A stretch of 64,000 nucleotides of DNA from the sequence record MK310183; one strand, given 5' to 3'. Below are positions 1,602-9,390 of this stretch, in pieces (position 1 is the stretch's first letter; the number at the start of each line of letters is the position of its first letter). The position numbers and the translations under genes are program-made. The notes beneath the pieces were generated by a model. The model worked only from the letters and a program-made list of their open reading frames with translations. It searched no databases and was not told the origin of the DNA. This DNA comes from Phage NC-B.

Positions 1602-2069
1602 ATGTTTGGAGAAAAAGGAGAACTCACGCCTGCACAGGTAGCTGAGATTACAGGAAGACTGCCCGGAGTAACGGAAGAACTTGAATCCAAGGGCATGGAA
1701 CCAAGCACAGGGAAGTTCACTAAAGGTAATAAATTTGGACGTCCCAAAGGTAGTAGAGGTAAATTGACACAGCTCATGCTCGATCGTGTTGCTGCTAGTC
1801 ATCTGTCTCCTGATGAAGTGTTGATTCAGATTTATGAAGATCCAAATATTCCACCCGATCTTAGATTCAAGGCTGCAAGTAAAGTCGCTGATCTGGTATA
1901 TCCTAAGGCAGCTTCTGTTGAGGTTAAGATTGAGGAAGAGAATGTAATCAATGAAGAGTCACTGAACGCACAGATTCGAGACTTCTTGACTGGTGCACTG
2001 AAAGTGGATGTGCTACCTCCAGAGGACTCTGAGGACGCTGAAAAGGGGGAGGAAGCGGACGAGAGTTAA
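1602..2069 (+). CDS. putative terminase small subunit
   Basis: 155 aa ORF immediately upstream of large terminase; HTH-like segment LTPAQVAEITG; basic KGNKFGRPKGSRGK stretch. Confidence 0.45.
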   Translation: MFGEKGELTPAQVAEITGRLPGVTEELESKGMEPSTGKFTKGNKFGRPKGSRGKLTQLMLDRVAASHLSPDEVLIQIYEDPNIPPDLRFKAASKVADLVYPKAASVEVKIEEENVINEESLNAQIRDFLTGALKVDVLPPEDSEDAEKGEEADES

Positions 2070-2123: not shown

Positions 2124-3677
2124 TTGGAGGAATATATGTCGTTAGATAAAGAAATCTATGAAGCTCTAACTGGAGACAAGTTGAGTATAGAGGAAAAGAA
2201 AGCTTTGCTCAATATGTTAAAAGAAAGGGACCAGTGGAGAAAATATAACAAGATGTTGGCTTTTAAAGCTTACGACTTTCAGAAGAAATTCTATGCAGCA
2301 GGGTTGAAGCATCGCTTTCGATTCCTGTGCGCAGCTAACCGTGTTGGTAAATCTTACAGCGAGGCATATGAGTTTGCTTGTCATGTCACAGGTCGCTATC
2401 CAACTTGGTGGACAGGTTACAGATTTAATCGACCCATATTGGCTTGGGCAGTAGGGATTACAGGGGACTCTACAAGAAAGGTATTGCAAAAGGAGTTGTT
2501 TGGAACACCTATCGGAAAGGATATGAATCTAATAGGAACAGGTGTTATTCCTCGTGATGCTATCGTATTGGACACGATAGAACGAGATGGGAATAAATTA
2601 CAGATTGTACAAATTAAGCATCAAAACGCGAGAGGCGAGTTTGACGGTTTAAGTACATTAGAGTTCCGTTCTACCCAACAGGGTGAACATACATTGATGG
2701 GTGCTACAGTTGATTATATTTGGCTGGACGAAGAAGATCCATATGAATCTATGGCAATCTTCTCTCAGTGCGTAACACGTACACTTACAACTAAAGGTTT
2801 AGTTACAATTACAGCTACACCAGAGAACGGTTTAACAGAGCTGGTGGATAAGTTTATGAAAGGTGAAGGAGATGAGAACACAGGTTCTCTGTATTTCCAG
2901 AATGCTTCTTGGTGGGATGCTCATGTAGATTTAGGTGGACATATCACTGACCAAGATATTAAAGACATGACTGAAGGTATTCCAACATGGCAGTTAGAGA
3001 TGCGTTCAAAAGGTATGCCGTTGCTTGGTTCTGGTTTGATTTATGACGTATCAGATGACATGATTAAGTGTGATCCCTTTGAGATACCTGATACGTGGAA
3101 ACGTGTTTGTGCTATTGATATTGGTATCGATCACCCGACAGCCGCTGTTTGGACAGCATATGATGCTAACACTGATACGATTTATGTTTATGACTGCTAT
3201 AAAGAAGGTGGGTTTACTCCGGTGTACCATGCACCAGCTATTAATGGTCGTGGTCAGTGGATTCCAGTTATTCTTCCTCACGATGCCGATAATATTGAGA
3301 AGGGAAGTGGTTCGTCTGTTGCTCAATTCTATAAGAATGCAGGAGTTAATGTACAGAGTGAGACCTTCTACAACAAGATTGGAATGGATGGTAAGAAGAA
3401 CTTCTTTGTAGAGCCGGGAATTACTGATATTCGTGAACGTATGATGTCGGGTCGTTTTAAAATCTTTAACATTGCATCTTGTGCTAAACTCTTTGAAGAG
3501 AAAGCTCGCTATCACCGTAAGGTTGGCAAGATTGTTAAGGAACATGATGACTTGATGGATGCTATGCGATATTCAGCTTGTTCTGTAACACATCGTGGAC
3601 GTAGTAAGCATGATGCTAGTTATGGTAGTTCATCGCTTTATCAAGACAATATTAACAGATGGAATCAGACCTACTAA
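2124..3677 (+). CDS. terminase large subunit
   Basis: Walker A-like CAANRVGKS, Walker B-like DYIWLDEED, C-terminal nuclease-like region; 517 aa. Confidence 0.9.
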   Translation: MEEYMSLDKEIYEALTGDKLSIEEKKALLNMLKERDQWRKYNKMLAFKAYDFQKKFYAAGLKHRFRFLCAANRVGKSYSEAYEFACHVTGRYPTWWTGYRFNRPILAWAVGITGDSTRKVLQKELFGTPIGKDMNLIGTGVIPRDAIVLDTIERDGNKLQIVQIKHQNARGEFDGLSTLEFRSTQQGEHTLMGATVDYIWLDEEDPYESMAIFSQCVTRTLTTKGLVTITATPENGLTELVDKFMKGEGDENTGSLYFQNASWWDAHVDLGGHITDQDIKDMTEGIPTWQLEMRSKGMPLLGSGLIYDVSDDMIKCDPFEIPDTWKRVCAIDIGIDHPTAAVWTAYDANTDTIYVYDCYKEGGFTPVYHAPAINGRGQWIPVILPHDADNIEKGSGSSVAQFYKNAGVNVQSETFYNKIGMDGKKNFFVEPGITDIRERMMSGRFKIFNIASCAKLFEEKARYHRKVGKIVKEHDDLMDAMRYSACSVTHRGRSKHDASYGSSSLYQDNINRWNQTY

Positions 3678-6232: not shown

Positions 6233-7314
6233 TGGCAAATGATTATATTGACCCGAACGATTTTAAATCTTTCCTCCAACTAGACGACTTAAAAGGCTCC
6301 TTCAAAGAAGAGCTTAGTCAATTAGAATCAGAACGTGAACCAGAAGTGAACATTGATGATGAATTCCCAGAACAGTCTGAGACTTTTGATCTTGATGCTT
6401 CCGACCTTCTCGGTGATGACGATACGTTAGCGTTCGAAGATGAAGATGGTTGGGAAGATCGTGAAGAGGAAGGCGAAGAAGAAGAGGAAGAGTCGGAGTT
6501 CTCTGATGAAGACGATGAAGAAGATGATTCCGGTGAAGCAGATCACGATGAAGCTGCTAACAGTGATGAAGATGGCGAAGAAGGTGAAGTCTTTGACGTA
6601 GATTATGAAACTGTTATCACCCTTCCTGATGGTCGTGAGATGACTATTGAAGAGTTGTCTAATGGCTATTTGACTGGTGCAGAAATGTCCGAACGTGAGA
6701 CTACTTTGCAGCGTCATGTTGAAGCTTTTGAAGAACGTGTTGCTGGCTTGGGGGATGTATTAGAACTAGCTGCCCTAGAAGCAGACCGAGTAATTGAAGA
6801 TTACAACGGTTTTGATTGGGACAAACTCGCACAAGAAGATCCTCAAGCTTATGTAGAAAATAAACGTTTCTTAGAAAAATATACAGCTCGTCGCCAACAG
6901 CTTGAACAAGCTCAGCTTAAAATCAAGCAAGAAGCACTAGCAAAAGAACAACAGCTCTTCCAAGCTAAATGTACTGAGTGTGTAAGCGTACTTAAACGTG
7001 AGATTCCTAATTGGGATGACAACTTGTATCAGAACCTGATGCAGTATGCAATCGACTTAGGTGCTACAGAAGAAGAAGTGCTGAAAGAGAACCGTCCGTC
7101 AATCTTCCTAGCTCTACACAAAGCATACCAGTTTGATAAAGGTAAGCAGCAGGTGATGGCTAAGATTAAACGTCCCGGCTCTCCACGCAAGGTTGTGAAG
7201 TCCGATGCTTCTAAGTCTCGTTCTTCCAATACGCCAGACAACGCTAAGGTTGCCAAGGCATTCTCAGAGGGTCGTATTCGTCACGAAGACGCATTTAAGT
7301 ATCTCGTAGATTAA
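6232..7314 (+). CDS. scaffolding protein
   Basis: extremely acidic N-terminal half (D/E runs), helical coiled-coil C-terminal half, sits between portal and capsid. Confidence 0.7.
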   Translation: MANDYIDPNDFKSFLQLDDLKGSFKEELSQLESEREPEVNIDDEFPEQSETFDLDASDLLGDDDTLAFEDEDGWEDREEEGEEEEEESEFSDEDDEEDDSGEADHDEAANSDEDGEEGEVFDVDYETVITLPDGREMTIEELSNGYLTGAEMSERETTLQRHVEAFEERVAGLGDVLELAALEADRVIEDYNGFDWDKLAQEDPQAYVENKRFLEKYTARRQQLEQAQLKIKQEALAKEQQLFQAKCTECVSVLKREIPNWDDNLYQNLMQYAIDLGATEEEVLKENRPSIFLALHKAYQFDKGKQQVMAKIKRPGSPRKVVKSDASKSRSSNTPDNAKVAKAFSEGRIRHEDAFKYLVD

Positions 7315-7354
7315 TCGACAAATTTATTTTTAATAGTATAGGAGCTAATATAAC

Positions 7355-8413
7355 ATGGCAAATCCAACTTTATTTGTATCTTACGACCAGAATGGTAAAA
7401 AACTTTCTTTTGCTAACTGGATTTCTGTCCTGTCTCCGCAAGACACTCCGTTTGTGTCTATGACTGGTAAAGAGTCTATCAATCAGACTATTTTCAGCTG
7501 GCAGACCGATGCTCTGGCGAGCGTAGATGCTAACAACGCCCACGTCGAAGGTTCTCGTGCTGAAGACGGCGAAATGAAACCGACTGTAATCAAGTCCAAC
7601 GTTACCCAAATTCTGCGTAAAGTTGTTCGTGTTTCTGATACTGCTAACACCACCGCTAACTACGGTCGTGGTCGTGAACTTATGTATCAGCTGGAGAAGA
7701 AAGGTAAAGAGATTAAACGTGACCTCGAGAAAATCTTGCTGTCCGGTCAGGCTCGTACCGATATTCTGGCAGACCAGTATCTGACCAACTCTGCAACTGA
7801 TCCTGCTGTTGTAGGTCAGAATGATACCTCAGCTGCTCGTAAGACTGGTGCTTTCCAGTTCCTGTGTGCACACAACGGTGTTGCTGGTGGTGTTGTTAAG
7901 AAAGAAGATGGTCCTGCTGACCCGGATACTGGTGCAGTAACTGTTAAAGTTGCACAGAATGCTTCTAACCCGACTACGAACATCGGTTTTGATGAAGCTG
8001 ATATCTTTGATATGACTCTGCAACTGTATACCGCCGGTTCTGAAGCAGACATCATCATGATTAACCCTGCTCACGCTAGTATCTTTGCTAAGCTTCAGGA
8101 AAACTCTGTTGGTTCTCGTCAGCGTATCTTTGAGAACACCAAACAGTTCATCTATGAAGTTAACAGCATCACTGACCCACTGGGCCAGAGCTATAAAATC
8201 ATCGTTAACCGTTGGATGCCTGCTGATGCAGTTTACTTCTTCCGCAGCTCTGACTGGACTCAGATGGTTCTTCGTGCTCCGAAACGTACTGAACTGGCGA
8301 AAGATGGTTCTTACGAGAAATGGATGATCGAAATGGAAGTTGGTCTGCGTCACCGCAACCCATATGCTTCCGGTGTACTGTTCACTGCTGCGGGAAAGGT
8401 GGAAGCGGCGTAA
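7355..8413 (+). CDS. major capsid protein (short form)
   Basis: 352 aa ORF after scaffold, strong AGGAG SD, stop TAA 8411-8413. Confidence 0.85.
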   Translation: MANPTLFVSYDQNGKKLSFANWISVLSPQDTPFVSMTGKESINQTIFSWQTDALASVDANNAHVEGSRAEDGEMKPTVIKSNVTQILRKVVRVSDTANTTANYGRGRELMYQLEKKGKEIKRDLEKILLSGQARTDILADQYLTNSATDPAVVGQNDTSAARKTGAFQFLCAHNGVAGGVVKKEDGPADPDTGAVTVKVAQNASNPTTNIGFDEADIFDMTLQLYTAGSEADIIMINPAHASIFAKLQENSVGSRQRIFENTKQFIYEVNSITDPLGQSYKIIVNRWMPADAVYFFRSSDWTQMVLRAPKRTELAKDGSYEKWMIEMEVGLRHRNPYASGVLFTAAGKVEAA

Positions 8414-9192
8414 CAGTAGATTCCGTAACTGTTAGTCCTTCGTCGGTTGCAAGCCTTCCGACGGGGGCTACTCAGCAGTTTACAGCTACAGCAGAAATGA
8501 GCGACGGCTCCACAAGCACAACCGGATTTAATTGGTCCGTTGAGGGCGGTGGGGCTGTTTCTGTTTCTGGGCTATATACTGCACCGAGTACGTCGCAAGA
8601 AACCCCAGCAACTATTACGGCTATTAAAGGTGGTAAGTCAGGTACTGCTACAGTTCTATCTGTTTTTGAACCTGCTACTATTGAAGCCAAAGCTAACATC
8701 TCGGGTAAAGTAGGTGGAAGCACCACAGCTTTTACTACAATGTTTACAGCAACTAACTCTTCAGCAGAAGATTATTCTTTTGTTGTATCTCCGACGTCAG
8801 CAGGAACCGTTAGTGCCGCAGGAGTTTTAACTTTAAGTAATGATGCAACTGGCACAGTTACTGTTAAAGCAACTCATAAAACTCAGTCAGGTGTTGAAGC
8901 TACTATAACCTTTACAGGTGTTGTTGCTAAAGCAGCTATTACTGGAAAAACCGTCACTGGTAAGGTTGGTGGTGATACTATTACGTTTGCTGAGTTATTT
9001 ACAGCAACTAACTCTTCAGCAGAAGATTACAACTTCGTATCAAGTCCTCCTGAAATGACTTCATCTATCGATGAGAGCACTGGTCTTGTTACCTTGGCTG
9101 CTGGCGCTACAGGTGATATCACAATTACTGCTACTCACAAAACACAAACGTCTGTGACAGCAACTGCTACGATTACGGTGGTATCAGAGTAA
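7355..9192 (+). CDS. major capsid protein long form (capsid fused to three Ig-like Big_2-type domains via -1 frameshift at 8392-8398)
   Basis: -1 frame ORF 8320..9192 has no independent SD; contains tandem repeats ...FTATNSSAEDY...TVKATHKTQ... Confidence 0.55.
8392..8398 (+). other. -1 programmed ribosomal frameshift slippery heptamer G_GGA_AAG
   Basis: X_XXY_YYZ heptamer 5 codons before the capsid stop; the -1 frame is open from here to 9192 and encodes Ig-like domains. Confidence 0.6.
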
Positions 9193-9295
9193 CTGTTATT
9201 CTACTAGCACTTATTATCAGTGCAGGTGTGAAAATTACATTTAGAAAGAGTTCTGGTGTTTTCTGTAATCACTGTTAAATCTAGTACATAAGAAT

Positions 9296-9326
9296 AAAGC
9301 CGCCTTCGGGCGGCTTTTCTCATTTT
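9296..9326 (+). terminator. rho-independent terminator
   Basis: GCCGCC-TTCG-GGCGGC then TTTTCTCATTTT. Confidence 0.8.
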
Positions 9327-9390
9327 AAGACCCTTATAAGGAGATATGTAATGTATTCTCTTTGTCTATACACAACTAGGAGGACAAGTT

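Follow-up and report, generated by a model that had tools for sequence, protein, structure and literature searches.

The major capsid gene of phage NC-B (sequence record MK310183) is followed, one base out of frame, by a long open reading frame (ORF) for Ig-like domains. We asked whether this region is a gene with a start of its own or is joined to the capsid protein by programmed -1 frameshifting, as an earlier note made from the letters alone had proposed. All coordinates refer to the 64,000-nucleotide stretch of DNA that was analyzed (the window). We found that the phage very probably makes a 612-aa capsid-Ig fusion by -1 ribosomal frameshifting, the proposal of the note being supported by the conservation of the slippery heptamer, the lack of a suitable start for the Ig region, selection in the -1 frame, the predicted Ig folds, and the proteins reported from related phages. 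A -1 frameshift that adds Ig domains to the capsid protein is already known for this phage group: capsid frameshifting at GGGAAAG has been published for phiEco32 (2008, as cited in later papers), SU10 (2014), Privateer (2021), and YF01 (2023), with mass spectrometry or gels as evidence.

The capsid gene and the open -1 frame behind it

NC-B is a Kuravirus-like E. coli podophage of the phiEco32/SU10 group (Gordonclarkvirinae). Over positions 7300 to 9350, its nearest relative is Escherichia phage vB_EcoP_HC-25922, with 98.7% identity, and dozens of other members of the group are 84 to 94% identical to NC-B in this region. The capsid ORF (7355 to 8413) has SU10-type portal, scaffold, and adaptor genes as neighbors, and the locus contains the following features.

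7340-7344, + strand: AGGAG, Shine-Dalgarno sequence for the major capsid gene, located 10 nt 5' of ATG 7355 (anti-Shine-Dalgarno duplex, -6.5 kcal/mol)
7355-8413, + strand: major capsid protein gene, zero frame (352 aa, 38.7 kDa; HK97 fold, SU10_MCP family)
8392-8398, + strand: slippery heptamer G_GGA_AAG, predicted site of the -1 shift (frame verified; the sole in-frame X_XXY_YYZ of the capsid gene)
8398-9192, + strand: -1 frame extension, 264 codons plus TAA (9190-9192) (predicted fusion product, 612 aa, 64.3 kDa)
8411-8419, + strand: tandem zero-frame stops TAA CAG TAG, ending the short capsid form (read in the sequence)
9296-9327, + strand: intrinsic terminator ending the capsid/Ig transcription unit (9-bp stem, 6 GC pairs, T-rich tail)

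The capsid protein belongs to Pfam family PF17236 (E = 2.6e-79, 267.2 bits against a curated cutoff of 24.1), and its residues 1 to 350 match the SU10 major head protein (PDB 7z45_A, E = 1.6e-221). We found no terminator between the capsid stop and the Ig region, and the one located 3' of the Ig ORF was rated strong.

The 3' end of the capsid gene reads GCG GGA AAG GTG GAA GCG GCG TAA, which places GGGAAAG (8392 to 8398) in the zero frame as G_GGA_AAG, and four sense codons separate it from the capsid stop TAA at 8411 to 8413. In one relative, Bas93, the first of the tandem stops is lost and the TAG does the terminating. After a slip, the -1 frame would continue as GGT GGA AGC GGC GTA..., encoding GGSGVTVDSV..., and the predicted junction of the fusion is ...FTAAGKGGSGV..., with ...VLFTAAGK and then GGSGVTVDSVTVSPSSVASLPTGATQQFTATAEMSDGSTSTTGFNWSVEGGGAVSVSGLYTAPSTSQETPATITAIK as the predicted tryptic products. 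Direct reading and translation thus bore out the heptamer, the long open -1 frame, and the junction given in the earlier note, and corrected its estimate of a long form about 27 kDa larger than the short one, since the computed difference is 25.6 kDa (38.7 versus 64.3 kDa).

G_GGA_AAG is an X_XXY_YYZ heptamer on which both tRNAs can re-pair in the -1 frame, and it ranks with the sequences most prone to shifting in E. coli. For an internal null, we collected all in-frame X_XXY_YYZ heptamers from both strands of the window, taking every ORF with 150 aa or more (16,738 codons in total). Among the 41 heptamers found, only the capsid site is followed by a long -1 extension, 264 codons against 33 for the runner-up, so that chance is excluded as the source of a heptamer combined with an open -1 frame at the end of the capsid gene.

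Transcriptional slippage, or a mistake in sequencing or assembly, could in principle also produce a difference of one base between the two frames, with nothing specific pointing to either. Slippage by RNA polymerase needs homopolymers far longer than the three G and three A present here. Both explanations are further opposed by the same frame arrangement in over a dozen genomes and metagenome contigs that were sequenced independently, and by the 352-aa short form, of which the solved SU10 capsid is built. We therefore regard the chance that either accounts for the locus, in place of ribosomal slippage, as negligible.

Ig-like domains and the start of their translation

In the earlier note, the extension was described as three Big_2-like Ig repeats, two of them nearly identical. 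We assigned the domains as follows.

8410-8661, + strand: Ig-like domain 1 (Big_2), extension residues ~5-88 (Pfam match to residues 7-84; AlphaFold2 strands E7-E86)
8671-8928, + strand: Ig-like domain 2, extension residues ~92-177 (AlphaFold2; Big_2 score of 19.7 bits, subthreshold)
8932-9186, + strand: Ig-like domain 3, extension residues ~179-263 (AlphaFold2; Big_2 score of 18.7 bits, subthreshold)

Against the Big_2 profile (Pfam PF02368; gathering threshold, 22.8 bits), domain 1 alone scored 27.9 bits and the entire extension scored 40.9 bits; domains 2 and 3 cover nearly the full profile at scores just under the threshold. An AlphaFold2 model of the extension, calculated with 39 homologues, has a mean pLDDT of 96.4 and consists of three all-beta domains. 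In a Foldseek comparison with the PDB, the extension matched the Leptospira LigA Big_2 tandem 8gyr with a probability of 1.00 (TM 0.45/0.60), and other matches included SU10 nozzle Ig domains, S-layer proteins, and cadherins. Since the AlphaFold2 model and the Foldseek matches agree, the presence of three Ig-like domains is confirmed at the level of predicted structure, with domain 1 as the only one above the Big_2 cutoff. The near identity of two repeats did not hold, as domains 2 and 3 are only 53% identical (41/77), and we detected no sequence similarity of domain 1 to domain 2 or 3. The Ig array begins 5 residues past the slip site, after a Gly/Ser linker.

These domains could instead be the product of a separate gene that starts at ATG 8497 or ATG 8320, in which case they would form a free decoration or minor capsid protein bound noncovalently to the capsid. 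Most GenBank records, that of HC-25922 included, call the Ig region in this way, as a separate, N-terminally truncated gene; the database proteins of the region are all called as stand-alone ORFs, and the SU10 structure paper describes gp10 as possibly a minor capsid protein. The region nevertheless offers little to begin translation with. Within the 33 codons from 8398 to ATG 8497, we found no ATG, GTG, or TTG in the -1 frame. Translation from ATG 8497, the first downstream start and the one annotated in HC-25922, would begin 33 codons inside the Big_2 domain and would omit the first 33 residues of this domain, including its first beta-strands. No Shine-Dalgarno sequence was found for this ATG, in line with the statement in the earlier note that the Ig ORF has no ribosome-binding site of its own. 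Its predicted anti-Shine-Dalgarno pairing is +0.7 kcal/mol, compared to -4.2 kcal/mol at ATG 8320 and -6.5 to -10.2 kcal/mol for the capsid, scaffold, adaptor, and fibre genes. ATG 8497 is also absent in many relatives, in which the candidate starts differ, are scattered, and are equally unsupported. The upstream -1 frame ATG 8320 is present in the window and is not conserved; in 7 of the 12 Gordonclarkvirinae loci of our first set (window included), a -1 stop located 22 codons 5' of the heptamer eliminates it, and the frame has no start upstream.

We also compared codon differences in all three frames over the stretch from the heptamer to the first start, using 13 distinct sequences. In the -1 frame, 66% of the codon differences are synonymous, compared to 16% and 7% in the other two frames, and the -1 frame contains no stops across the 13 sequences, compared to 46 and 18 in the others. 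Judged by this comparison of sequences, purifying selection acts in the -1 frame on the stretch between the heptamer and ATG 8497, which encodes a portion of Ig-like domain 1, and the codon-substitution pattern of this stretch argues that it is translated in that frame, though no start codon can serve it. We rejected ATG 8320 as an independent start because it is unconserved and the upstream -1 frame is closed in the 7 loci, and ATG 8497 because it has no Shine-Dalgarno sequence, is unconserved, cuts the Big_2 domain, and has selection acting upstream of it. Translation of the Ig ORF from its own start, which the earlier note had named as one of the findings that would overturn its proposal, is thus opposed by Shine-Dalgarno pairing, start conservation, and codon selection alike, and long capsid forms have been seen in the relatives SU10 and Privateer. 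A separate Ig gene is consequently very unlikely in our judgment, and the evidence favors one capsid gene with two products.

The predicted fusion, its conservation, and related systems

If a single capsid gene is expressed by frameshifting, most ribosomes would stop at TAA 8411 to 8413 and yield the 352-aa capsid protein, and a minority would slip back one base on G_GGA_AAG (8392 to 8398), as the tRNA-Gly in the P site re-pairs with GGG in place of GGA and the tRNA-Lys in the A site with AAA in place of AAG. The slipped ribosomes would then read the -1 frame to 9192 and produce the 612-aa protein, which would consist of the complete capsid fold, a short Gly/Ser linker, and three tandem Ig-like domains. 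The long form would presumably be a low-copy component of the prolate capsid, assembled together with the short form and displaying its Ig domains on the exterior. That the longer protein enters the virions of NC-B is suggested by the papers on its relatives. For the efficiency of the shift, the sole benchmark is the lambda G/GT value of about 3.5% as quoted in the YF01 paper, from which we infer that a few percent of ribosomes may shift; with the 715 subunits reported for the SU10 capsid, such a rate would give some tens of long subunits per capsid.

The loci that we examined came from 17 Gordonclarkvirinae (window included), comprising Kuravirus, Suseptimavirus, BASEL isolates, and metagenome contigs, and from 2 members of Privateervirus. 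The heptamer is in frame in all 17 of the former and in both of the latter, and the -1 frame is intact in 18 of the 19 loci. The slip site is fixed, whereas the extension varies from 169 to 545 aa and in domain content, with Ig arrays of two to six domains across the group. It contains 264 aa and three domains in the window and in HC-25922, 178 aa in phiEco32, 459 aa in Bas86 and Bas89, and about 545 aa in Paul and YF01. In SU10, a 1-nt indel cuts the -1 frame to 11 codons. A search of IMG/VR with the capsid protein returned 11 loci, few of them new. A pattern scan of metagenomes gave 116 matches and, among the matches listed, most were chance 18-mers; when the scan and the earlier loci were pooled, 31 matches, representing 17 distinct sequences, had capsid context.

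The published work on these relatives covers both the frameshift and its products. The SU10 genome paper reported GGGAAAG in the major head gene, likened it to the phiEco32 site, and used mass spectrometry to identify one form of 38.5 kDa and another of 55.4 kDa. The Privateer paper described two gel bands and mass spectrometry for the capsid forms, and it states that the frameshifted product had been seen in phiEco32 and SU10. The YF01 paper gave the frameshift and the extension sizes for YF01 and other phages of the group and noted a premature -1 stop in SU10. Cryo-electron microscopy of SU10, the only Kuravirus capsid that has been solved, showed no Ig density and no long band, and the missing density is accounted for by the premature stop in the -1 frame of that phage. 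The GenBank records of Paul and YF01 annotate a joined coding sequence, and the note in the Paul record cites the phiEco32 paper.

The case of SU10 bears on a further explanation, in which the fusion is negligible or is kept out of virions and the Ig extension is dispensable baggage maintained by recombination. Since SU10 is viable with its truncating indel and has a uniform capsid, the extension is dispensable in the laboratory, and no classical stimulatory element lies beside the heptamer, as described below. Against this explanation stand the heptamer and the -1 protein, which are conserved across genera with only one interrupted locus in 19, and more distant relatives that keep a capsid-Ig form by means of a second capsid gene. 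In Salmonella phage 7-11, Cronobacter phage GAP52, and Aeromonas phage BUCT695, which have SU10_MCP capsid proteins, the short form and the Ig-bearing long form are adjacent, as in NC-B, but there is no frameshift: the heptamer is absent from their capsid genes, and the long form is an adjacent paralogous capsid gene with Big_2 in frame. The maintenance of short and long capsid forms by two different genetic routes argues that the long Ig-bearing form is selected, and we consider it very unlikely that the fusion is negligible or kept out of virions.

Among systems that do shift frame, the closest to a capsid-Ig fusion in NC-B are phiEco32 gp11/gp12, SU10 gp9/gp10, Paul, and YF01, which share the gene, the heptamer GGGAAAG and its place, and a first Big_2 domain behind a Gly-rich linker. 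PhiEco32, Paul, and YF01 differ from the window only in the number of Ig domains, and SU10 differs by its truncating indel. Privateer and Cronobacter phage vB_CsaP_009 (Privateervirus) have a homologous capsid protein, GGGAAAG, and an Ig-type -1 extension, but in these phages the heptamer abuts the stop codon, the extension combines I-set with Big_2, and a hairpin is predicted 6 nt past the heptamer, a classical spacing unlike that in the window. In T7 (10A/10B) and T3 (gene 10), a -1 shift near the end of a podophage capsid gene likewise yields a minor, longer capsid protein, and the T3 extension is also Ig-like; however, both capsid proteins belong to a family unrelated by sequence, the slippery sequence is a different one, and the T7 extension is short and non-Ig. 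Lambda G/GT uses the identical heptamer G_GGA_AAG in the same host, but its product is a tail assembly chaperone that is absent from the virion. Frameshifting that appends Ig-like domains to structural proteins is common in phages and recognized as a general pattern. The window adds no new principle, and what remains of value in it is a corrected annotation for the Ig ORF and an unreported distal hairpin.

The earlier note had suggested that surface Ig domains may mediate adhesion to cell-surface or environmental carbohydrates. An adhesive role is the standard hypothesis in the literature, and the domains would probably be exposed on the capsid exterior. ES17 is the one Kuravirus with glycan-binding data, and its binding of mucin and heparan sulfate has been assigned to the tail fibre and not to an Ig domain; we therefore rejected these data as functional evidence for the Ig domains.

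RNA structure around the slip site

The earlier note had called for a prediction of a downstream stimulatory RNA structure, and this check had a mixed outcome: nothing at the classical distance and a conserved hairpin farther downstream. At 5 to 9 nt downstream of the heptamer, we found no significant or conserved hairpin or pseudoknot, and a search for a Shine-Dalgarno-like motif 10 to 14 nt upstream of the heptamer found none. To our knowledge, lambda G/GT shifts without a strong stimulator, and such elements are frequent, not obligatory. The sequence just 3' of the heptamer encodes the Gly/Ser linker, which varies among relatives by 3-nt indels.

Two other structures near the site were considered. 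The SU10 paper proposes a stem-loop that encloses the slip site (CTGCTGC...GCGGCG), corresponding to positions 8386 to 8410 of the window. We rejected it as a stimulator, as its folding is no better than that of shuffled sequences (z = +0.69); its 3' arm lies in the variable linker and shows no compensatory change, and the structure is unfit for this role because a ribosome on the heptamer would melt it. A 7-bp stem, UAACAGU (8411 to 8417) paired with ACUGUUA (8428 to 8434), lies 12 nt downstream of the heptamer and is moderate in strength (z = -2.07). Both of its arms are nearly invariant, which leaves covariation no signal, and the 5' arm is also accounted for by the tandem stops TAA CAG TAG.

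Using RNAalifold and per-sequence folding, we found one further structure.

8427-8480 (core, 8433-8470), + strand: conserved RNA hairpin within the Ig coding sequence (MFE of -24.1 kcal/mol, z = -3.95)

The hairpin starts 28 nt downstream of the heptamer and its core 34 nt downstream, and all of the haplotypes found fold alike, at -23 to -33 kcal/mol. Across 13 distinct sequences, 92.9% of the structure cells are paired, a figure that covers the hairpin plus a small stem around the heptamer, compared to 33 to 53% when the partners are slid. Five further GenBank relatives contained no new hairpin haplotypes. Three pairs of the hairpin are changed on both sides (GC/UA/AU, GC/UG, and UG/GC). In one covarying pair, one partner is the third position of a Ser codon, where the change is synonymous, and the other is the second position of a variable codon (Pro/Leu/Gln/Glu); on the sequences compared, this pair appears hard to attribute to protein constraint. 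Because only about six haplotypes are available, the covariation is suggestive and not conclusive.

At 28 nt from the heptamer, the hairpin lies beyond a ribosome on the slip site, which makes it ill suited as a classical stimulator, and it sits just ahead of a ribosome terminating at 8411 to 8413. It is the only element described here that is absent from the papers that we consulted. We tentatively raise the possibility, doubtful as it is, that the hairpin is a distal element regulating either the frameshift or what becomes of the mRNA 3' of the capsid stop codon. If so, it could, for instance, pause frameshifted ribosomes and thereby hold a trailing ribosome on the slippery site, or it could keep Rho or RNase from attacking the Ig region, which would be poorly translated.

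RNA structure and stop codons near the capsid slip site

Beyond the G_GGA_AAG slip site near the 3' end of the major capsid gene, we found a conserved RNA hairpin at 8427-8480 (+) that begins 28 nt 3' of the heptamer and lies within the coding sequence of the first Ig domain. This hairpin has a z score of -3.95 and shows compensatory base-pair changes across approximately six haplotypes, and we found no mention of it in the papers that we consulted. The short form of the capsid protein is terminated by tandem zero-frame stop codons, TAA CAG TAG, at 8411-8419 (+), and these may account for the invariant GTAACAGTAGA in the -1 coding sequence. In the related phage Bas93, the first of the two stop codons is gone and the TAG serves instead.

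The same GGGAAAG heptamer is present in Privateervirus (loci L008 and L017, 2725-2775), where it immediately adjoins the stop codon of the capsid gene. A predicted hairpin (-11.4 kcal/mol; z score, -1.7) comes next, after a spacer of 6 nt, and the extension in this case consists of an I-set domain and a Big_2 domain. Within the window, the only other in-frame heptamer whose -1 frame outruns the zero-frame stop is A_AAG_GGG at 2042, in 1602-2069 (+), with a -1 frame of 33 codons, 26 of them past that stop. This occurrence is probably due to chance.

The Ig reading frame in GenBank records and in SU10

In the nearest GenBank relative, HC-25922, the Ig region is called as a separate coding sequence (2698-3393 of locus L001, equivalent to 8497-9192 in the window) that starts at an internal methionine and thereby cuts into the first Ig domain. 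Similar starts, inconsistent with each other, are found in most records of the phage group. Compared with phiEco32, the record of SU10 carries a 1-nt indel right after the capsid stop (locus L004, approximately 2300-2325). With this indel, the -1 frame ends after 11 codons, and the Ig open reading frame falls in the zero frame, behind the capsid stop. This arrangement agrees with the SU10 cryo-EM map, which shows no Ig density, and is at odds with the 55.4-kDa form identified by mass spectrometry in 2014.

Capsid paralogues and the region downstream of the Ig reading frame

Unlike the window, three distant relatives are without the slip site and have instead an adjoining second capsid paralogue with an in-frame Big_2 fusion, which is a gene-duplication alternative to frameshifting:

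L010, 1788-3545: second capsid paralogue with Big_2, Salmonella phage 7-11
L009, 2818-3918: second capsid paralogue with Big_2, GAP52
L012, 2760-3992: second capsid paralogue with Big_2, BUCT695

In phages Bas86 and MLP3, an HNH endonuclease gene is inserted between the Ig open reading frame and the adaptor gene. In the window, this interval has no such insertion and contains a terminator:

9296-9327 (+): strong, bidirectional-looking intrinsic terminator with a 9-bp stem containing 6 GC pairs
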